Below are positions 39,836-54,553 of a stretch of DNA of 54,612 bases, piece by piece; position 1 is the first letter of the stretch; every line of letters begins with the position of its first letter. Source of the stretch: an uncultured Campylobacter sp. (lineage in GTDB: Bacteria > Campylobacterota > Campylobacteria > Campylobacterales > Campylobacteraceae); NCBI RefSeq assembly GCF_938045225.1, contig NZ_CALINL010000010.1, positions 1-54,612 of the forward strand. The letters run 5' to 3'. The notes under the pieces were generated by a model that did not search any database, was not told the origin of the DNA, and was given only the letters and a program-made list of their open reading frames with translations. Made by a program: the position numbers and the translations under genes.

Positions 39836-41011
39836 ATGGTTAAAGATATGAGTTCTGGTCAGGAAACGGACATTTTTAATTGTCCGACTATTTTATATAT
39901 TAAAAATCTTGGTTTAGAAAAATCGGATGCAAATTTAGAACATCTAATTTATCTATTCCATCAAGATTTGGGAATTGATTTAAAGCGTGAAATAGTATCT
40001 TCCATAGGAAGACAAACTAATAGCAAGAAAATATATGATTTTATATCTCAAGAGGTATTTAATAATCACTATATGGAAGTCGTTTATCAAATGTTTCGGA
40101 CGGTTCTTTATAGGTCTAAATCGGATATGGATTTTAAAAACCTAAAAGATAAAATTTTAGACTTTTATAAAAACGAAGTTATGTATAAAATGGTGGAATT
40201 TTACGAAAAAAAACAAAGGGGTAATTTAAAATTAAACTTTAATAGACAAATCACAAGGCCTACGATATTAGTCGGAGACAATAGACAAACTCTAAAAAAA
40301 ATCAAAGATAATCAAATCAATCTAATATTTACATCGCCTCCATATTATAATGCAAGAGAGTATTCAGACTATAAAAACTATAAAGAATATCTAGAATTTA
40401 TGTATGACACCTTAGAGCAGTGTCATAGAATCTTAGAGGACGGCAGATTTATTTTGATTAATGTTTCGCCCGTAATAACAAAAAGAGTCGGCAGAGAATT
40501 TGAATCGATTAGATATCCTATACATTTCGACTTTCATTCTATATTGATTAGAGCAGGTTTTTATTTTATAGATGAGATTATTTGGATAAAGCCGGAATAC
40601 AGCGTTCCAAATAGAATAGCAGGTTATATTCAAACAAGAAGACCCTTGAGTTATAAACCAAATTGCATTACAGAAAGCATAATGGTATATCGAAAAAAAG
40701 CCCCTTTTCTATTAGATAAAAATATTGCTATGTATGACAAAGGGTATAAAAACGATAATAATATAGATAGCACAAACTGTTGGTATATATCGCCCAAATC
40801 AGACAAAAAACATCCTGCGGTTTTTCCTGAAGAATTATGTGAAAAGGTGTTAAAGTATTATTCATTTGAAGGCGATACAGTGTGCGATCCTTTTGCCGGA
40901 AGCGGAACTTTCGGTAGAGTTGCAAAAAGGATGAACAGAATTCCATTGCTATGTGAGCAAAATCGTAATTACGTAGAAAATATAAAGAAAGGCGGTTTTT
41001 ATGACATTTGA
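39836..41011 (+). CDS. site-specific DNA methyltransferase (beta class, probably N4-cytosine)
   Basis: TSPPY motif IV precedes HPAVFP and DPFAGSGT motif I. Confidence 0.92.
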   Translation: MVKDMSSGQETDIFNCPTILYIKNLGLEKSDANLEHLIYLFHQDLGIDLKREIVSSIGRQTNSKKIYDFISQEVFNNHYMEVVYQMFRTVLYRSKSDMDFKNLKDKILDFYKNEVMYKMVEFYEKKQRGNLKLNFNRQITRPTILVGDNRQTLKKIKDNQINLIFTSPPYYNAREYSDYKNYKEYLEFMYDTLEQCHRILEDGRFILINVSPVITKRVGREFESIRYPIHFDFHSILIRAGFYFIDEIIWIKPEYSVPNRIAGYIQTRRPLSYKPNCITESIMVYRKKAPFLLDKNIAMYDKGYKNDNNIDSTNCWYISPKSDKKHPAVFPEELCEKVLKYYSFEGDTVCDPFAGSGTFGRVAKRMNRIPLLCEQNRNYVENIKKGGFYDI

Positions 41012-41867
41012 TGATTTAGTAGTTAACAATACGGTTGAAAAACTAATAAGAGGAGAGGATTATCGACAAGAAGTTGTAAATTTTATCAATAGTAGCTTTT
41101 TGGACTTTGCCTTAGTTTTTTTTAAAAGAATTTTAGACGCGAAAATGCATAATATAGGCATTAATATTGATTGGTATAAAAAATATTTTATCCAAGAAAA
41201 TAATTTTAGTGCTGATGAAGCCATTATATTTGCTGGAATAAACAAAAAAACTATAAGTAATATCTATGGAAGTGCAACCAGAGAAATTATGCTTAATGTT
41301 GCTAGTGAAAATATCGACTATTTGAAGTCTTTGCTAGATATGTTAGAAGACAACAATGATAGCATAGGTATTATTATAAAAATTTCATACAATAGTATTT
41401 CAATAGAGCTAAACCTTAATGAAAGCTTATTGGTTATAAATGCTTTAGCGACCAAAAAGATAGCATTGCGAGGTAGTGCATGGAGTAGCATTGGCAAAAG
41501 AGTAGAAAAACCATTAATGATCAAGCTTTGTGAGCTGTGCAAGGTGCCGAAAGATTTTATAAATTCTGAAGTTTTTAAAAAGAATAATAAAATGGATTTT
41601 GACAGAGAAGTGGATTTTAAGCTATATAACTCAAAAAAGGATAAGGAATTTAGGGTTGAAGTAAAACTTATGGGCAAAGGAAATCCCGAATCAGCGGATG
41701 CCGTTATCGCAAGAGAGTCTAAAATTTTTGTTGCCGATACGCTTAGCGAACAAAATAAAAATCAACTAAAGTCGCTAGGGGTTGAATTTTTGGAGCTAAA
41801 AAATAACGAGAACTGTGTAGATGATTTCAAGAAAATATTAAAAAAACTAGATATTCCATTCTCTTAA
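41001..41867 (+). CDS. type II restriction endonuclease, CfrBI family
   Basis: INALATKKIALRGSAWSSIGKRVEKPLM and EVDF...RVEVKLMGKGNPESAD (PD-(D/E)xK); overlaps the MTase. Family recognised from memory. Confidence 0.78.
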   Translation: MTFDDLVVNNTVEKLIRGEDYRQEVVNFINSSFLDFALVFFKRILDAKMHNIGINIDWYKKYFIQENNFSADEAIIFAGINKKTISNIYGSATREIMLNVASENIDYLKSLLDMLEDNNDSIGIIIKISYNSISIELNLNESLLVINALATKKIALRGSAWSSIGKRVEKPLMIKLCELCKVPKDFINSEVFKKNNKMDFDREVDFKLYNSKKDKEFRVEVKLMGKGNPESADAVIARESKIFVADTLSEQNKNQLKSLGVEFLELKNNENCVDDFKKILKKLDIPFS

Positions 41868-46568: not shown

Positions 46569-47189
46569 CTACTTTATAAACCCGACCTGCGGTAAAATTT
46601 CAGCCAGCGCCGCGTCCTTTTTCTCGTTAAATTTAACCTTGTTTTGCTCAAAAAGGTTGTTTCCGTGCGCATCTATCGAGACTATTAATGGGCCAAATTC
46701 CTTCACGCGGCACTTCCACAAGGTCTCTGGCATCCCAAGCTCCGTCCAGTCGGCACTCTCGATCTCCTCGACCTGCGTCGCGGCGACCACCGCGCAGCCT
46801 GCGGGAAATACGCAGTGTATCGCGCCAAACTCCTTGCAGCCGCTCATCGTGCCCTCGCCCATGCCGCCTTTGCCGACAATGAGGCGCACGCCCGTTTTGG
46901 CGATAAATTCGCGCTCGAATTTCTCCATCCTCATGCTAGTCGTCGGCCCGACCGAAACCATCTCAAAGCTTTCTTTGCCGCCGCCGTCCATTTTTCTGAT
47001 GATCGGCCCCGCGTGCAGGATCGCGCCGCCCCTGATGTCTAGCGGCAGCTCGCGACCCTCCTGCACGACGCGTCTGTGCGGCACGTCGCGACAGGTGACG
47101 ATGTGCCCGGTTAGATAGATCACGTCGCCGATTTTGATATCCGCTAGATCCTCGGGCGCGATCGGCGTGGTTAAAATTTTCTTACTCAT
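46569..47189 (-). CDS. ttdB: L(+)-tartrate dehydratase beta subunit
   Basis: KKILTTPI...[26 protein letters not shown] and ELGMPETLW closely follow E. coli TtdB. Confidence 0.9.
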
Positions 47190-48084
47190 AGCGCGAACTC
47201 CTTGTGCGATTTTACGGCAAAATTTAGCCCCGCGTCCCAGACGATGTGCCCTTTGCGGTGCGACCAGCAGCCCACGTTTACGGCGACGGCGATGACGCTT
47301 GGGTGGCGGGCGCAGTTTTGTATATGCACGCCCATGACCGAGCTTGCGCCGCTCATGCCTTGCGGGCCTAGGCCGATTTTATTGATGCCCTCTTCGAGCA
47401 GCTTTTCGGTTAGCGCGGCGCGCTCGTTTGGATTATGCGAGCCAAGAGGCCTCATCAGCGCTTTTTTGGATAGCAAGGATGCCACGTCGATCGAGGTGCC
47501 CACGCCTACGCCCACTAGCAGCGGCGGACAGGCGTTTATGCCGTAGCTTGTCATTATATCCATAGCAAATTTAACGACGCCCTCATAGCCCAGCCAGGCA
47601 TCAGCACGGTCGCCTTGCCAGGTAGGCTACAGCCGCCGCCTGCCATATATGTGTCTATCTCACACTCGCTGCTTTGCGGTACGATCTCCCAAAATACGCT
47701 AGGCGTGCCCTTGCCGACGTTTTTGCCGGTGTTGTACTCGTCAAAGGTCTCGACGCTGTTGTGACGCAGCGGAGCCTCGCGCGTCGCTCGCAGTACGGCC
47801 TCTCGCAGCAGCTCCTCAATCTCGCCGATGAGCGGGAAGTTCGCTCCGCAGCGCACGAAAAACTGGATCACGCCCGTATCCTGACAGGACGGACGATCTA
47901 GCTGCTTAGCTAGGCGCTGGTTTTCAAACATCGTTTTGTAGATTTCTCTCGCCAGCGGCTGCGTCTCGCGCTCGGCGAGCTCGCTTAGCTTCGCCGTCAC
48001 GTCGTCGGGCAGCACTTTGCCCGTGTAGCCGACGAATTTCGCCATGACCTCGGTCATCTTTTGCACGGCTTTTTCTTTATCCAT
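47186..48084 (-). pseudogene. ttdA: L(+)-tartrate dehydratase alpha subunit with a 1-nt frameshift
   Basis: Starts MDKEKAV (48084); CQDTG and AGGGCSLPG motifs. Restoring one base near 47592 gives LMPG(M)GYEGVVKFAMDIM, joining NACPP and GCWSHR. Confidence 0.88.
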
Positions 48085-48517
48085 CGCTTCTCCTTTGCCG
48101 GTTTTTACTTTCAAATTTTTCACTGATACCCGCCAGGATGCAGCCTGCGGCGTAGCAGAGCAGGTCGGCGAAATCAAACGTCCCGCCGATCATTACTTTT
48201 AAAATTTTATTTTCTATGCCTAAAATTTGCACGGCACCCAGATACTGCGCGAGCTCTAAAGCCGCCGCAAACGCGAAAATTTTAAGCGGTAAATTTGAAG
48301 GCGGCGCGCTAAATGTAGCCCTCGTCAAAACGTAAAGCAAGATAACCGCCAAAACATCGCCTGCGTAGTGGCGCACGAAGCCGCCCTTTATGCAGATCGC
48401 GATATAAATTTCGACCGCCAAAAGCACGCCAGCCGCGGCTAAAAACGCTAGCCTTGTTTGCGGCTTTTGCGCGAGCTTTGCGGCACTTTTTTGCTCGTTT
48501 AAATTCTCCCCTCGCAA
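48077..48517 (-). CDS. DUF2809 family membrane protein
   Basis: FVRHYAGDVLAVILLY, LELAQY and IGGTFDFADLLCY motifs. Start uncertain; TTG at 48517 follows an AGGA. Confidence 0.75.
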   Translation of the reverse strand: MRGENLNEQKSAAKLAQKPQTRLAFLAAAGVLLAVEIYIAICIKGGFVRHYAGDVLAVILLYVLTRATFSAPPSNLPLKIFAFAAALELAQYLGAVQILGIENKILKVMIGGTFDFADLLCYAAGCILAGISEKFESKNRQRRSDG

Positions 48518-48582
48518 CGCTTTCCTTTTAAATTTAGCCTTCAAATTTAGCCGTTAAATTTGCCTCGCGCGCGGGCGTAAAT

Positions 48583-49329
48583 TTAGAGATGATTTATCAG
48601 GCTCGCGTTGTACGCGGCGCCGAATCCGTTGTCGATATTTACGACGCTAACGCCGTTTGCGCAGCTGTTTAGCATCGCTAGCAGTGCCGCCAGCCCGCCA
48701 AAGCTCGCTCCGTATCCCACGCTGGTGGGCACCGCGATCACGGGCACGCTAACAAGACCAGCCAGCACGCTAGCTAACGCACCCTCCATGCCGGCTACCG
48801 CGATCACGACCTTTGCGCCGCGTATCTGATCTAAATTTGCGATCAACCTATGCAGTCCCGCCACGCCCGCGTCGCTAAATTTGCGCACGTCGTTGCCTAG
48901 AAATCTCGCCGTTTCGTACGCCTCCTCCACGACCGCGCCGTCTGCGGTGCCTGCGGAGACTATCGCGATGTAGCTTTGCGTGAGCGTGGGCTCTTTAAAT
49001 TTGACGCTGATGACGCGGCCGCGAGCATTAAACTCCGCCTGCGGCAACGTCTTGCGCACCAGCTTAAAAACCTGCTCGTTTGTGCGCGTGATCAGGATAT
49101 TTTGCCCTCTCGCGCCGATCGCACCGGCGATGCGTAAAATTTCATCATCAGTCTTGCCCTCGCCGTAGATCACCTCGCCCGCGCCGTTTCGCAGGGCGCG
49201 CTGGGTGTCGATCTTGGCGCAGCCCACGTCCTCGTAGGGGTAGTTTTTCAGGTATTTTAGCGCTTCTTGCTCGCTCACGCGGCCGCTTTTTATCCCCTCG
49301 AAAAGCTCTAAAATTTCACCCTCTCTCAT
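48583..49329 (-). CDS. larB: NPN cofactor biosynthesis carboxylase/hydrolase LarB
   Basis: EVIYGEGKT, SAGTAD, VAGMEGAL, VPTSVGYG and LNSCANGVSVVNIDNGFGA motifs. Confidence 0.95.
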   Translation of the reverse strand: MREGEILELFEGIKSGRVSEQEALKYLKNYPYEDVGCAKIDTQRALRNGAGEVIYGEGKTDDEILRIAGAIGARGQNILITRTNEQVFKLVRKTLPQAEFNARGRVISVKFKEPTLTQSYIAIVSAGTADGAVVEEAYETARFLGNDVRKFSDAGVAGLHRLIANLDQIRGAKVVIAVAGMEGALASVLAGLVSVPVIAVPTSVGYGASFGGLAALLAMLNSCANGVSVVNIDNGFGAAYNASLINHL

Positions 49330-50098
49330 GCAAAACATCCTCTCTAAGCCCCTTTAGATCGAGCGTCACCTCCGCTGCACCAAGCGAGACGAGCCGTCTA
49401 ACGACGCTTTTAAATTTTGCATCGTTTAGGAAGTCTCGCATGCTGGAAAAGGGCATTTGCAGCTTTATATTTTTGCGGTCGCACCGCGCGCGGACGTTTG
49501 CGTAGCCGCTTGCGATGAGTAGATTTTCCGCGGCTTCGATCAAATTTAGCTCGCTCTCATCGATCTCGCGCCCGTGCGGCAAGCGCGTTAGCAAGCACGC
49601 GTAGCCCGGTTTTTCGGCAGTGGGTAAATTTAACTCGCGCGAGAGCTCGCGGATCTCGGATTTGGTTAAATTTATCAGCGGCGAGAGCACGCCTAGCTCC
49701 TCTTTTGCTTTGAGCCCGGGGCGGTATTCGCCCAGATCGTCTCGGTTCGTGCCGTCTGCGACGCGGCTAAAGCCAAGCTCACGGGCGCGCTCTATCAGGC
49801 GCGAAAACACCGCCTTTTTGCACAGATAGCAGCGGTTTTCTGGATTGTCTTTGATCCCCTCCGCGACGCCGAGCTCTAAAATTTCGTGCCTGATGCTGTA
49901 GATGCGGGCAAATTCTACGGCTTCTGCGATCTCGCGCGAGGACATGTAGGGCGATCTGATCGTTATGCCGATCGCGCGCTCACCCAGCGCGTCGTATGCC
50001 GCACGCAGCAGCAGCGAGCTGTCCGCGCCGCCGCTAAATGCGACTGCGAGTTCGCCCAGCCCGCGCAGATCAGCCTTTAGTTTTTCTAGTTTCGTCAT
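49316..50098 (-). CDS. larE: ATP-dependent sulfur transferase LarE
   Basis: PP-loop AFSGGADS, RCYLCK, DGTNRDD..YRPG and ACLLTR motifs. Confidence 0.93.
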   Translation of the reverse strand: MTKLEKLKADLRGLGELAVAFSGGADSSLLLRAAYDALGERAIGITIRSPYMSSREIAEAVEFARIYSIRHEILELGVAEGIKDNPENRCYLCKKAVFSRLIERARELGFSRVADGTNRDDLGEYRPGLKAKEELGVLSPLINLTKSEIRELSRELNLPTAEKPGYACLLTRLPHGREIDESELNLIEAAENLLIASGYANVRARCDRKNIKLQMPFSSMRDFLNDAKFKSVVRRLVSLGAAEVTLDLKGLREDVLHERG

Positions 50099-51407
50099 AG
50101 ATTTCTAGCGCCTCTTTTCGCACCCGCTCGATCGTCGTGCCGTGCGCGAGCGCCGCGGCCTTGCAGTCCTCAAATTCGGGCTTTGCTTTTTGCGTTTGGC
50201 CGCTGCCTGAAATTTTGAGCCCTATCTCGCCGAATTTCGTCTGCACACGCACAAACTCGCGCTTTAGTTCGGTTTTAGCAACCTCTATCTCGCGGACGCC
50301 GATCGCCGTCGTGTGCGTAAATATCAGATCCTTTAAATTTTGTGCGTCCTGCTCGCGGCACAGCGCATTTAGCTCAAAGCCCGCGCGCCCCTTTTTCATA
50401 AAAATAGAGCGGCTAAATACGTCCAGCGCGCCGTTTTCGCGCAAAATTTCGCAGGCAAAGGCAAAGCTCTCGGCATCCATATCGTCGATGTTGGTGGAGA
50501 TTAAAATTTGCTTGCAAACCTCGCCGTAGCCAGCTCGCGCGCCTAAATTTGACTTGTCGCTTTCGCCGCTTAGATCCGCCTCGCAGATCATCGCGCGAAG
50601 CACGTTTGCAAAGCCAGCGGCGTCACGCTCGCCAGCGCCGTAGCCGATCTTTTCGATTTTAAAGCTCGCGCCGTCCGTAAACTCGTCCGCGCAGGCCTTT
50701 AAAATCGCCGCTCCCGTGGGCGTTGTCATCTCGAAATTTGCGCGCCCAAGGCTTACGGGCACGCCTTTTAAAATTTCGCAAACGGCGGGTGCCGGCACGC
50801 TAAGAGCGCCGTGATCGCAGATCGCTACGCCGCCGCCAAGCTCGATAGGCGAAGTAAAAATTTGCGGCGCGCCCAAAGCCTCCAAGCAGATAGCCGCGCC
50901 CACTACGTCCGCGATGCTGTCTGCGGCGCCAACTTCGTGAAAATGTACTTGCCCTACGCTAGTGCCGTGGATTTTGGCCTCGGCTCGCGCGATAACGCTA
51001 AAAATTTCGCTTGCCGTTTTTTTTACGAAAGTGCTTAGGCTAGAGCTCTCGATAAGCTCTAAAATTTGCGTGAAATTTCGCGGACGCGGATGGTTTTGGG
51101 CGGGCTTATCCGCTCTAAATTCGGCGCTGTGAATTTTGCCGTTTAAATTTTGACGCGGGCTAAATTTAGCGCCTAAGAGGCCAAGCGGAATTTGGCTCGG
51201 ATTTGCCGCGCAAACGACGTCGATTTTGGTCGCGGCGATGCCGTTTTTTAACACGTTTTTGCGCTCTAGCTTAAATTCGCCGGCTAAATTTAATTTCTCA
51301 AGCTCGGTGCAAAGATAGCCAAAATCCACTCCGAGCCCCACCAGCGCGCCTAAATTCATATCGCCGCTGATGCCGCAGCTCGCGTCGTAATATAAAATTT
51401 TAGCCAA
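50070..51407 (-). CDS. larC: NPN nickel insertase LarC (single ORF)
   Basis: GISGDMNLGAL, VHFHEVGAADSIAD, EMTTPTGAA, TNIDDM and KPEFEDC motifs. Confidence 0.94.
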   Translation of the reverse strand: MAKILYYDASCGISGDMNLGALVGLGVDFGYLCTELEKLNLAGEFKLERKNVLKNGIAATKIDVVCAANPSQIPLGLLGAKFSPRQNLNGKIHSAEFRADKPAQNHPRPRNFTQILELIESSSLSTFVKKTASEIFSVIARAEAKIHGTSVGQVHFHEVGAADSIADVVGAAICLEALGAPQIFTSPIELGGGVAICDHGALSVPAPAVCEILKGVPVSLGRANFEMTTPTGAAILKACADEFTDGASFKIEKIGYGAGERDAAGFANVLRAMICEADLSGESDKSNLGARAGYGEVCKQILISTNIDDMDAESFAFACEILRENGALDVFSRSIFMKKGRAGFELNALCREQDAQNLKDLIFTHTTAIGVREIEVAKTELKREFVRVQTKFGEIGLKISGSGQTQKAKPEFEDCKAAALAHGTTIERVRKEALEIYDETRKTKG

Positions 51408-51409
51408 AC

Positions 51410-52660
51410 TTACGCCTTAGGCACCGTCATCGAGCCAAACGGCAGGATGATGATTTTAGCGTCCGCACCCTTTTGCGCGAGCGCGTCGTCCACGGCCTTT
51501 TGGATGTCGTGGTATGGCTTTAGATGCACGGCTCGCATCTCATCATCGCTTAGATCAGTCACAGCCCAAGTCTGCGCCCAGAGCGAAATTTCAGCCATTT
51601 TAGCAGCCTTGTGGTAGCCAAGCTTAAAGCCAGAATTTATCTTTTCAAGCACCTTTTTTGGCGTGTCGGCCGATGCCATAAGGTCAAAAAAAGGTTTTGG
51701 ACCGATGCCTGTGCGGCATTTTGCGACCATTATTAAAATTCCATCCTTTGCAAGCGCTAATTTGCCGTTATCTAAAGCTTTTTGCGCCTGATAAAGATCG
51801 ACATCCATAGGATAGGGCGCTACCGAGATCACGATGTCGGCTTTTTGTGGGATATTTACACAAAAGACCTCATCGGCCTTTTTCACGCAGTCGTAAAAAC
51901 TATCATTTAGATCGCCAGCACTTGCGTAATAGACGCCATGTTCGCTATCAAGCACGGTTTGTATAGAAAATACGTCGATATTTGAAAGCACCTTCATCGC
52001 ATCGATCATATCTTCATGCACGGGGTTGCCCTCAAGGCGCAGAGCCTGAGCGTCAGGACTAAGGGCTAGTTTGTGGTTTTGCGTGATGCTCTCGTATGAG
52101 GCAGTGCCTGGTAAAAAGGCCTTTCTACCGCCGGTGTAGCCAGCAAAATAGTGCGGCTCGACTGAACCTATAACGATCACTTTTTTAGCTTCAGCTACGA
52201 TTTTGTTTAGATACATCTGCGTGCCGTTTTTGGACTCGCCTAAAAATACCATCTCATCGTGCTTTGAGTCGTGATCATGAACCTCGTTTTTGGCTCTGAT
52301 CTCTGAGTAAATTTCTTTAGAAAATATCATATTGTATTCATCTAGCGTCCCCTCTCTGTGGCAGCCAGTGGCGATGATGAAAATTTTATTTTTATCGCGA
52401 AGTTTTGGATAAATTTGCTTTAAAATTTTAGCAGTTGGCGTAGGCCTTGTGCCGTCATTTACGATGATAACGATCTTTTCATCGCCTGCGATAAACTCGT
52501 CAAAGCTTTTTTGGTTTATTGGATTTGCCAAAGCCTTTGCGATAAGCGCCGCTTCGTCAAATTTAGCGACTTTGTTTGGGTCAAAAATGCCAAGCAGATT
52601 TTTTTCGTCTATTTTTAAATTTATATGGTCATCTTTGCCATAAGCGATAGGGATTTGCAT
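51410..52660 (-). CDS. larA: LarA-superfamily NPN-dependent alpha-hydroxy-acid racemase/epimerase
   Basis: NDGTRPTP, ATGCHR (H101), EPHYFAGYTGGRK (H170, K180), NH196 and YQAQK motifs. Confidence 0.93.
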   Translation of the reverse strand: MQIPIAYGKDDHINLKIDEKNLLGIFDPNKVAKFDEAALIAKALANPINQKSFDEFIAGDEKIVIIVNDGTRPTPTAKILKQIYPKLRDKNKIFIIATGCHREGTLDEYNMIFSKEIYSEIRAKNEVHDHDSKHDEMVFLGESKNGTQMYLNKIVAEAKKVIVIGSVEPHYFAGYTGGRKAFLPGTASYESITQNHKLALSPDAQALRLEGNPVHEDMIDAMKVLSNIDVFSIQTVLDSEHGVYYASAGDLNDSFYDCVKKADEVFCVNIPQKADIVISVAPYPMDVDLYQAQKALDNGKLALAKDGILIMVAKCRTGIGPKPFFDLMASADTPKKVLEKINSGFKLGYHKAAKMAEISLWAQTWAVTDLSDDEMRAVHLKPYHDIQKAVDDALAQKGADAKIIILPFGSMTVPKA

Positions 52661-52700
52661 GTTTGCTCCTTAAGCAGATTTATTAATTTTTAGTCTTAGG

Positions 52701-52844
52701 ATTATATATCAAATTTTCTTTTAAATGCATTTAGATCGATTAAATTTGACTAGCGGCGCATCAAATTTGGTTAAATATATGATTAATACTTACAAATGTA
52801 TTTTTAATTTTTTTATTAGTATTTAATTTTAATATTTATATAAT
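52701..52844. promoter_or_regulatory. divergent promoters for the lar cluster and dcu
   Basis: Minus-strand TATAAT at 52701-52706 and plus-strand TATAAT at 52839-52844 in an AT-rich spacer. Confidence 0.55.
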
Positions 52845-52873
52845 CGCGGCGTAATTTCCAAAAAGGAGAAAAA

Positions 52874-54553
52874 ATGGAATTTCTAACCAGTTTGAGTGAA
52901 AGCACTCAGTTCACTCTCCAACTAATCGTAGTGCTCGGATGTCTGTTCTACGGCGCTAAAAAAGGCGGTATGGCGCTAGGTGTACTAGGCGGCATCGGTC
53001 TTGTTATCTTGGTATTTGCATTCGGTATGAAGCCTGGCAAACCGGCAGTAGACGTCATCCTAACGATCCTAGCCGTCGTCGTAGCATCTGCTACGCTTCA
53101 AGCAGCGGGCGGTCTTGATGTTATGCTTCAGATCGCTGAAAAAGCGCTTAGAAAGCATCCAAAACTAGTCTGTTATCTTGCGCCGATTTGCGGCTGGACA
53201 CTAACGGTGCTATGTGGTACTGGTCACACAGTTTATACACTTTTACCGATCATCTATGATGTATCAATGAAAAGCGGTATCCGTCCGGAAAGACCGCTGG
53301 CTGCGACTACGATCTCGTCTCAGCTAGCTATCATCGCTAGCCCGGTTTCGGTTGCGGGCGTATCTATGGTCGCGGTTTTGCTAGGCACGGGCACCGTTCA
53401 TATCGATGGCTTTACTAGCTATGTAGATTTGCTTAAAGTTACGATTCCGGCTACCTTCATAGGCGTGCTTTGTATTGGTACTTTTTCCGTATTTAGAGGA
53501 AAAGACCTCGATAAAGACCCTGAATTTCAAGAAAAAATTAAAGATCCGGAGCAAAGAAAATACATCTACGGCTCAGACGATTCTAAATCGCTAGTCGGCG
53601 TTCATCTGCCTAAAAAGCAATGGAATATAATGTGGATATTCCTAGCTACCATCGCTATCGTGGCGGTTCTAGGCTACTATAAACAGCTTCGCCCTAGCTG
53701 GACTAGCGATGTCCCAGGTAAATCTATCGAAATCGTAGTGGATAAAAAAGTAGTTAAAAACATTACCGTAAAAGACGGACAAGTAGTCTCTACCGTAGAT
53801 AGTAGCAAAGTCGTCTCAAACGTAAAAGACAGTAAAGTAAAAGATGCTACTAAATTTACTAACGTAGAAGTCCTAGATAAAGACAAAAAAGTAACTCAAA
53901 CCATCGTGCTTCAAGACGGCAACGTAGTTATTACTAAAGGCGACAAGACCGAAACCGTCGCAAACGCTAGCATCGTAGTAAAAGATACTATGAAAAAAAC
54001 CGCGCCTCTAGGCATGGTCGATACGATCCAAATTTTCATGCTACTAGCCGCATCAATCATGATGATCTACTCAGGCATCAAGGCTGCTAAGATCGCTCAA
54101 AACGAGATTTTCCACAGCGGTATGGTTGCGCTTGTCGCGATCTACGGTATCAGCTGGATGGCCGATACGATGTTCCACTCTCACATCGAGATGCTAAAAG
54201 GCTCGCTAGGAGAGGTGATGAGGGCCTATCCGTGGATGTATATCGTAGTAGGTATGCTGATTTCTAAGTTCCTAAACTCTCAAGCAGCAGCTGCTGCGAC
54301 ATTCGTACCGCTTGCGGTTCAGATCGGCGTGGATCCAGGTATCATCGTCGCGTTTGCTACGGCTTGCTACGGATACTTTATCCTTCCTACATATCCGAGC
54401 GACCTTGCGGCAATCCAGTTTGACCGCTCAGGTACGACTAAGATCGGTAAATACGTCATCAATCACAGCTTTATCATCCCTGGTCTTATCGGCGTGTTTA
54501 GTTCGTGCGCAGTGGGTTGGGTGCTAGCTAACCTGTACGGATTTATAAAATAA
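52874..54553 (+). CDS. dcuB: anaerobic C4-dicarboxylate transporter (DcuB-type) with a ~100-aa insertion
   Basis: LCGTGH, IRPERPL, IASPVS, NSQAA and [19 protein letters not shown] motifs. Confidence 0.88.

Follow-up and report, generated by a model that had tools for sequence, protein, structure and literature searches.

A nickel-pincer racemase gene cluster joined to L-tartrate dehydratase and a Dcu-type carrier in Campylobacter: a candidate malate/tartrate stereo-inversion module

Several described systems resemble, in part, the gene cluster reported here: a run of genes for a LarA-type racemase, the proteins that make its nickel-pincer nucleotide (NPN) cofactor, an L-tartrate dehydratase (TtdAB) and a Dcu-type C4-dicarboxylate carrier, found in 54,612 nucleotides of DNA from an uncultured Campylobacter sp. 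(the window, which is the entire contig C10, NZ_CALINL010000010.1, of a 2.19-Mb draft genome of 328 contigs that is 94% complete). In Lactobacillus plantarum, larA, larB, larC and larE lie in one operon of the larABCDE/larR system. Lactate racemases are reported to possess Phe, Phe, Trp and Glu or Gln at four specificity positions, the last two of which are occupied in malate racemases by His or Gln and by a Lys that probably holds the second carboxylate (PMC11770544). The malate racemase Mar2 of Thermoanaerobacterium thermosaccharolyticum (LarAH6 family; PDB 6d6z, 7s91) carries the His-Lys pair and a Gln before its catalytic Lys according to PMC7583248, which also names malic enzyme as a clue to malate racemase. 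Three characterised malate racemases are reported to interconvert L- and meso-tartrate and D- and meso-tartrate as well (PMC11770544). The ttdAB-ttdT(U) systems of Escherichia coli and Salmonella are described as delivering oxaloacetate to fumarate respiration in exchange for succinate.

The window joins elements of these systems, and we consider it somewhat better than an even chance that the cluster is a conserved operon of non-jejuni Campylobacter which functions as a stereo-inversion module, with LarA, TtdAB and Dcu feeding fumarate respiration. It is read as such a module because the partner of LarA in Campylobacter is classed as a true tartrate dehydratase. LarB, LarE and LarC would supply LarA with its NPN cofactor, and Dcu would bring a C4 acid in and carry succinate out. 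LarA would equilibrate C2 stereoisomers, namely D- and L-malate and, as in the characterised malate racemases, L-, meso- and D-tartrate. TtdAB would pull this equilibrium by converting L-tartrate to oxaloacetate and possibly, on the analogy of the E. coli enzyme, D-malate to fumarate; oxaloacetate and fumarate would then be reduced to succinate through fumarate respiration, a process described in C. concisus (PMC7059363). The enzyme activities in this scheme are those of published homologues; how the steps are coupled, whether malate or tartrate is the native substrate and which way the flux runs are inferred. Genes were called from an open reading frame listing together with Pfam and NCBIfam family scans, and the features of the cluster are as follows.

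52874-54553, plus strand: dcu, long-form Dcu-type anaerobic C4-dicarboxylate transporter of 559 aa (PF03605, 432 bits; NF009136, 638.7 bits against a cut-off of 396)
52661-52873, no strand: divergent AT-rich spacer of 213 bp; larA and dcu are each preceded by a ribosome-binding site of AGGAG type
51410-52660, minus strand: larA, predicted NPN-dependent 2-hydroxyacid racemase/epimerase of malate-racemase type, 416 aa (Pfam Lar_N and LarA_C)
50070-51407, minus strand: larC, nickel-inserting cyclometallase of 445 aa with a TTG start (PF01969, 433 bits; LarC1, 208.6 bits, cut-off 90; LarC2, 133.7 bits, cut-off 50)
49316-50098, minus strand: larE, ATP-dependent sulfur transferase (TIGR00268, 280 bits, cut-off 150)
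48583-49338, minus strand: larB, NaAD carboxylase/hydrolase of NPN biosynthesis, 251 aa (NF033503, 280 bits, cut-off 175)
48077-48544, minus strand: small hydrophobic DUF2809 protein of 155 aa (PF10990, 74 bits)
47186-48084, minus strand: ttdA, L(+)-tartrate dehydratase alpha subunit, in two pieces (NF006084, positions 4-170 and 179-303)
46569-47189, minus strand: ttdB, L(+)-tartrate dehydratase beta subunit, 206 aa (NF006082, 368 bits, cut-off 264)

Direct observation, set out below, covers the identities of the genes, their signature residues and the conservation of their linkage. The order larA-larC-larE-larB-DUF2809-ttdA-ttdB on one strand with a divergent dcu had been proposed in a first-pass annotation made from the nucleotide sequence; the gene coordinates and the 213-bp spacer agree with it. 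From larA to ttdB the junctions consist of overlaps of 4, 8, 23 and 29 nt and gaps of 2 and 38 nt, the pattern expected of one operon. The NPN biosynthesis set is complete, in that LarB, both domains of LarC, and LarE all exceed their NCBIfam cut-offs. This arrangement differs from that of L. plantarum in its order (A-C-E-B) and in the lack of larD and larR at the locus, as the first-pass annotation had noted: the contig carries no MIP/LarD gene, contig C59 has the genome's sole MIP match, and no larR was seen, though no family search was aimed at it. The clusters differ, too, in LarE, which in L. plantarum is described as a single-Cys sacrificial protein. The window LarE contains SGGADS and a CXXC-C motif (C90, C93, C168), though the NCBIfam model that it matches is named "sacrificial"; since this motif is defined for the [4Fe-4S]-dependent catalytic LarE (PMC9283937), it is classed by motif as the catalytic [4Fe-4S] type. 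Finally, the specificity residues of the window LarA are of malate type.

LarA retains the attributes of its superfamily: the Lar_N and LarA_C domains, two catalytic His residues and the NPN-binding Arg, Lys and His. R72, H101, H170, K180, H196 and K294 align with R75, H108, H174, K184, H200 and K298 of L. plantarum LarA1, which places the catalytic and NPN residues picked out at first sight (H101, H170, K180, H196 and YQxxK) on their L. plantarum counterparts. The motifs read Y290-Q291-x-x-K294, EPHYF (Y171) and GYHKA (K351). Of the L. plantarum motifs quoted in the first-pass annotation, DQW was right and EPHFF was not; the PDB alignment reads ESHFF. Its suggestion that Y171 and K351 bear on substrate specificity holds up, because both fall on published positions. 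The four specificity positions are Y171, F172, H350 and K351, and the H350-K351 pair, at the positions of LarA1 W358 and T359, is the malate-racemase signature. As in Mar2, Q293 precedes the catalytic K294 and Y171 follows the second catalytic His, H170. The two proteins share the fold, the NPN-binding and catalytic residues and the His-Lys pair at alpha-14, and differ in the loop, which is Tyr-Phe in the window LarA and Tyr-Lys in Mar2. Mar2 (6d6z) is the best PDB match (E 3.3e-63), with lactate racemases ranking after it, and the top NCBIfam model is NF052593 (MAR, the LarAH6 family), at 394.4 bits under a cut-off of 500.

The sources of close relatives name them "nickel-dependent lactate racemase", and LarA does hold the full set of NPN-binding and catalytic residues that a true lactate racemase would require. 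We regard this identity as highly improbable. The lactate-racemase model NF033504 gives 294.5 bits against a cut-off of 460, lower than the MAR model, and the specificity positions hold Tyr-Phe and His-Lys rather than Phe-Phe and Trp-Glu/Gln. Furthermore, no lactate permease was found in the source genome (94% complete), larD is not on the contig, and C. concisus is reported to be without ldh and lutCBA (PMC7059363). The departure from lactate racemases that the first-pass annotation had sensed is thus seen in both model scores and residues. Because malate-type residues sit at the published specificity positions, the public name is most likely wrong for the window LarA, judged from its sequence.

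The assignment of TtdAB relies on family scores and on an active-site loop. In addition to the TtdB score listed above, the intact TtdA of a relative (locus L016) reaches 543 bits against a cut-off of 365, and the AGGGC loop is present in four aligned Campylobacter TtdA proteins and in the window's own translation. This loop is reported to mark L-tartrate dehydratases, and KGGGS-type loops to mark fumarases (bioRxiv 10.1101/2023.06.17.545066). By equivalog scores and loop together, Campylobacter TtdAB is classified as a true L(+)-tartrate dehydratase, and the source genome encodes no second TtdB above cut-off. According to the same preprint, the E. coli enzyme takes (R,R)-tartrate, takes R-malate 50-fold less well and is inhibited by S-malate and meso-tartrate, and an archaeal fumarase has the mirror-image specificity, for S-malate and (S,S)-tartrate. 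The cluster shares with the E. coli and Salmonella ttd systems the TtdAB equivalogs with their AGGGC loop. It differs in having a Dcu-type carrier in place of TtdT/DASS, in that no TtdR-like regulator was seen in it, and in the addition of a racemase with a full cofactor pathway; Salmonella is described as possessing a separate D-tartrate dehydratase (dtuAB) and no epimerase, and as not fermenting meso-tartrate.

The ttdAB genes stand where the first-pass annotation had placed them and belong to the families that it had named. It had read ttdA as one frame, however, and this frame is split into 47554-48084 and 47186-47563: one A is lacking between positions 47593 and 47592. The missing A is present in all four aligned relatives and the site is not a homopolymer; the frameshift is either a real mutation, which would make ttdA a pseudogene, or an assembly error.

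The linkage seen in the window recurs across the genus, in species of the mouth and the gut. Fifteen loci were fetched from 13 genomes: eight consist of dcu, larA-C-E-B and an intact ttdAB, one has the operon without an adjacent dcu, four are second or decayed copies (ttdB reduced to 30 residues; larA internally deleted in two), and one is from another family. A separate set comprised 30 named loci from C. concisus and uncultured Campylobacter. In 28 of these dcu is the neighbour of larA, divergent in 8 and co-directional in 20, and in each of the 16 loci on a sufficiently long contig ttdA comes after larB; the remaining 14 contigs end before that point. Across 121 genomes of the genus, a LarA match occurs in 62 and TtdB above cut-off in 49, and 46 of these 49 have both, a count that overstates independence because the genomes are kin. 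The three TtdB-positive genomes without LarA are 64%, 89% and 97% complete, and genomes in which larA is only truncated are without TtdB. The co-occurrence of lar, ttd and dcu from which the first-pass annotation drew its pathway is therefore widespread in these sets.

Second or decayed lar-ttd copies were seen at L015, L017, L026, L027, L038 and L068. They have eroded in several ways: only 30 residues of ttdB are left, ttdA has a frameshift, or larA is without its C-terminal half or residues 295-394. Duplication and erosion of the cluster are repeated events in the genus.

The LarA clade extends well beyond Campylobacter. In a scan of 1.84 billion cluster representatives, at least 150 clusters (50% identity) score above 231 bits against the window LarA and are closer to it than Mar2, for which the PDB search gave 218 bits. 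Of ten representatives sampled, nine fall under every LarA-type cut-off, with the LarAH6 model always highest; the tenth (P0266, 33% identity) passes the LarAH6 model at 545 bits. All 81 clade proteins taken from the fetched loci have the His-Lys pair. EPHYF is constant as well, which carries no information because it belonged to the search pattern. A quick tree of 61 rows, in which 7 of about 35 near-identical Campylobacter rows and one NCBIfam-defined LarAH6 marker were kept, groups the Campylobacteraceae proteins in a single clade (100% support) beside Sulfurospirillum-like, Lactobacillaceae and Desulfobacter proteins, whose branching order is unsettled, and places the LarAH6 marker on a long, distant branch. 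On these grounds the window LarA is assigned to a compact, biochemically uncharacterised clade. Its Lactobacillaceae members have 60-63% identity and G-x-H-K, so that it is plausibly the same as group 4 of the LarA homologues (LarAH) of Desguin et al. 2020, which is represented by a Lactobacillus zymae protein reported to be inactive after refolding; this identification is a guess.

We compared the neighbours within 6 kb at 49 loci of this clade from other taxa. A class I fumarate-hydratase-type alpha subunit occurs at ten of them and FumC at three; a DASS carrier at seven and Dcu at one; and a fumarate-reductase-like flavoprotein at six (three strong and three weak matches). Sulfurospirillum-like loci (L022, L059, L061) have the order DASS-FHalpha-FHbeta-larA-larC-larE-larB, in which FH denotes fumarate hydratase, and in Lactobacillaceae (L062, L065, L066) fumC, a soluble fumarate reductase of flavocytochrome-c type, DASS and LysR lie beside larA. 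The recurrent pairing with fumarases, fumarate reductase and dicarboxylate carriers in three separate lineages argues for malate-like C4 acids as the substrates of the clade. LarA-type racemases also stand beside dehydratases in Dehalococcoidia loci. Outside Campylobacter the hydratases show a KGGGS or KGFGS loop and pass fumarate-hydratase models, and those of Campylobacter have AGGGC and pass tartrate-dehydratase models; among the loci compared, a true L-tartrate dehydratase partner is found only in Campylobacter.

A number of observations weigh against the stereo-inversion module. The ttdA reading frame is broken in the source assembly itself, and many genomes of the genus carry decayed copies of the cluster. 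In one of the 15 fetched loci (G009), dcu and larACEB lie together and ttdAB is far off in the chromosome, and genomes of a single genus are non-independent samples. Dcu is not confined to the cluster: a full-length long Dcu is present in 116 of the 121 genomes, including ones without LarA, and it may thus be a general carrier rather than a cluster-specific one. LarA scores under the cut-off of every NCBIfam LarA-type model, and its clade contains no characterised enzyme. Its specificity residues are the same in TTD (tartrate dehydratase)-linked Campylobacter proteins as in fumarase-linked or unlinked relatives, so nothing marks the Campylobacter LarA as tartrate-adapted. Inspection of 21 positions turned up no residue peculiar to TTD-linked LarA; Campylobacter has Ala at position 292 and most others have Ser, but Ala occurs in some unlinked relatives as well. 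Outside Campylobacter, 36 of the 49 loci have no fumarase within 6 kb, and the three fumarase-less loci that were inspected have an FAD-linked GlcD-like oxidase beside larA.

These three loci (L072:11266-13767, L080:11296-13815 and L069:1068-3536) come from WOR-3, Desulfarculaceae and Desulfobacter. The oxidase has Fe-S/CCG domains fused to it or encoded after it. This neighbourhood is a different, D-2-hydroxyacid-oxidising context.

In a rival reading, LarA is a plain malate racemase that turns D-malate into L-malate for malate:quinone oxidoreductase or fumarase and TtdAB is an unrelated occupant of a shared C4-dicarboxylate island. The clade's partners elsewhere are L-malate-specific fumarases, either FumC or the FH type with its KGGGS loop, and the source genome has both fumC and a separate FH-type two-subunit enzyme on contig C107, so that L-malate could be used without TtdAB. 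In addition, LarAH62 is reported to work at 3.5e3 M-1 s-1 on L-/meso-tartrate, at 1.1e4 on D-/meso-tartrate and at 6.3e5 on malate (PMC11770544), a preference for malate of roughly 60- to 180-fold, and mqo is reported in C. concisus (PMC7059363). An island of unrelated genes would be harder to reconcile with frames that overlap from larA through ttdB, with the co-occurrence of LarA and TtdB in 46 of 49 genomes, and with a cluster that is both kept and lost as a single unit. We consider this rival reading rather unlikely.

The stereo-inversion module must also be distinguished from a two-step fumarase substitute, in which LarA and TtdAB would convert L-malate through D-malate to fumarate in species that are devoid of fumC. 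Such a route is chemically within the reported reach of the E. coli L-tartrate dehydratase, which dehydrates R-malate, and C. concisus is reported to be without fumC, its "fumarase" genes having been re-read as tartrate dehydratase (PMC7059363). The distribution of the genes is not complementary, however: LarA is present in 29 of 39 genomes with fumC above cut-off and in 33 of 82 without, and the source genome itself has fumC. Matches to the TtdB model at E <= 1e-10 occur in 115 of the 121 genomes, 49 of them above cut-off, and the sub-cut-off matches listed (about 100 bits, in 189-aa frames) are the beta subunit of a separate FH-type enzyme. The E. coli enzyme is, moreover, 50-fold weaker on R-malate than on tartrate, as mentioned above. 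A bypass of this kind is very improbable in our estimation, and LarA plus TtdAB as a replacement for fumC was dropped because the fumC/LarA distribution does not fit.

The separate enzyme of the source genome (C107:2102-3538) is a two-subunit Fe-S hydro-lyase of fumarate-hydratase type with a KGFGS loop. The listed matches of about 100 bits point to its presence in most of the genus, and it may be the fumarase of the species said to lack fumC.

Within the stereo-inversion module, a more specific role for LarA would be that of a tartrate epimerase in vivo, which together with TtdAB would make all three tartrate stereoisomers usable as a source of electron acceptor; we hold this to be possible and, on balance, doubtful. 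To our knowledge, tartrate epimerase activity has no assigned bacterial gene. Were LarA to have this role, the bacteria could use D- and meso-tartrate, which reactive oxygen and nitrogen species generate from sugars in inflamed tissue without any enzyme, and would at the same time remove meso-tartrate, an inhibitor of TtdAB. It would also be the first physiological role for the tartrate side-activity of malate racemases and a new trait, dependent on nickel, in a group of host-associated pathogens. Both D- and L-tartrate reportedly appear in the gut during inflammation (bioRxiv 10.1101/2023.12.08.570695) and C. concisus has been linked with inflammatory bowel disease (PMC7059363); the cluster could therefore be relevant to the advantage that these bacteria draw from inflammation. 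Nickel should be available to bacteria that depend on NiFe hydrogenase.

Every part of the cluster comes from a known family; the novelty lies in how they are combined and in the retention of this combination within a host-associated genus. A literature search returned no account of a lar-ttd-dcu pathway in Campylobacter, as the first-pass annotation had supposed, and supplementary context tables of LarA papers may list fumarase or tartrate-dehydratase neighbours. The reading offered here would correct the widespread "lactate racemase" annotation in C. concisus and relatives. It would also place an uncharacterised nickel-pincer clade that ranges from lactobacilli to archaea in a testable physiological context, in which unusual malate and tartrate stereoisomers supply anaerobic respiration with fumarate or oxaloacetate.

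With respect to the carrier, the NF009136 match spans profile positions 1-443 of 444, which places the protein within the Dcu family. An insert of about 115 aa, at about residues 285-395 and rich in Lys, Val, Thr and Asp, lies in the middle of the Dcu fold. The contig stops 59 bp past dcu, and the region beyond it is therefore not visible; polA lies beyond ttdB on the other side.

A consensus promoter scan was uninformative, with 8 sites against 8.5 expected and with promoter and terminator counts equal to those of shuffled sequence. The best public sequencing run covers no more than 0.21 of the words sampled from the stretch, and no RNA run is among those listed.

DUF2809 is a variable member of the cluster, being gone from those of two other species (L019/L020). 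In C. concisus (L028:13961-15292) a long additional C-terminal part brings the DUF2809 protein to 443 aa, as compared with 155 aa in the window. At L017 a 3.4-kb insertion separates larB from DUF2809; it holds opposite-strand genes with weak GNAT matches only, which give no functional clue.

The cluster has a mosaic base composition, with third-position GC content (GC3) of 0.47-0.48 in larA and dcu and of 0.66-0.73 in larB, larE and ttdB. The larA DNA is 92% identical to that of C. concisus and 87% identical to that of a relative (G004), whereas the DNA from larC to ttdB is nearer to G004 (89%, versus 74% for C. concisus). The uneven GC3 and the conflicting nucleotide identities suggest recombination inside the cluster, and a recent transfer of larA from C. 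concisus is a candidate idea. Elsewhere in the window, beside polA, a low-GC (0.31) island at 39836-41867 contains two genes, for a DNA methylase and a CfrBI-like restriction endonuclease, and is probably an acquired restriction-modification system.

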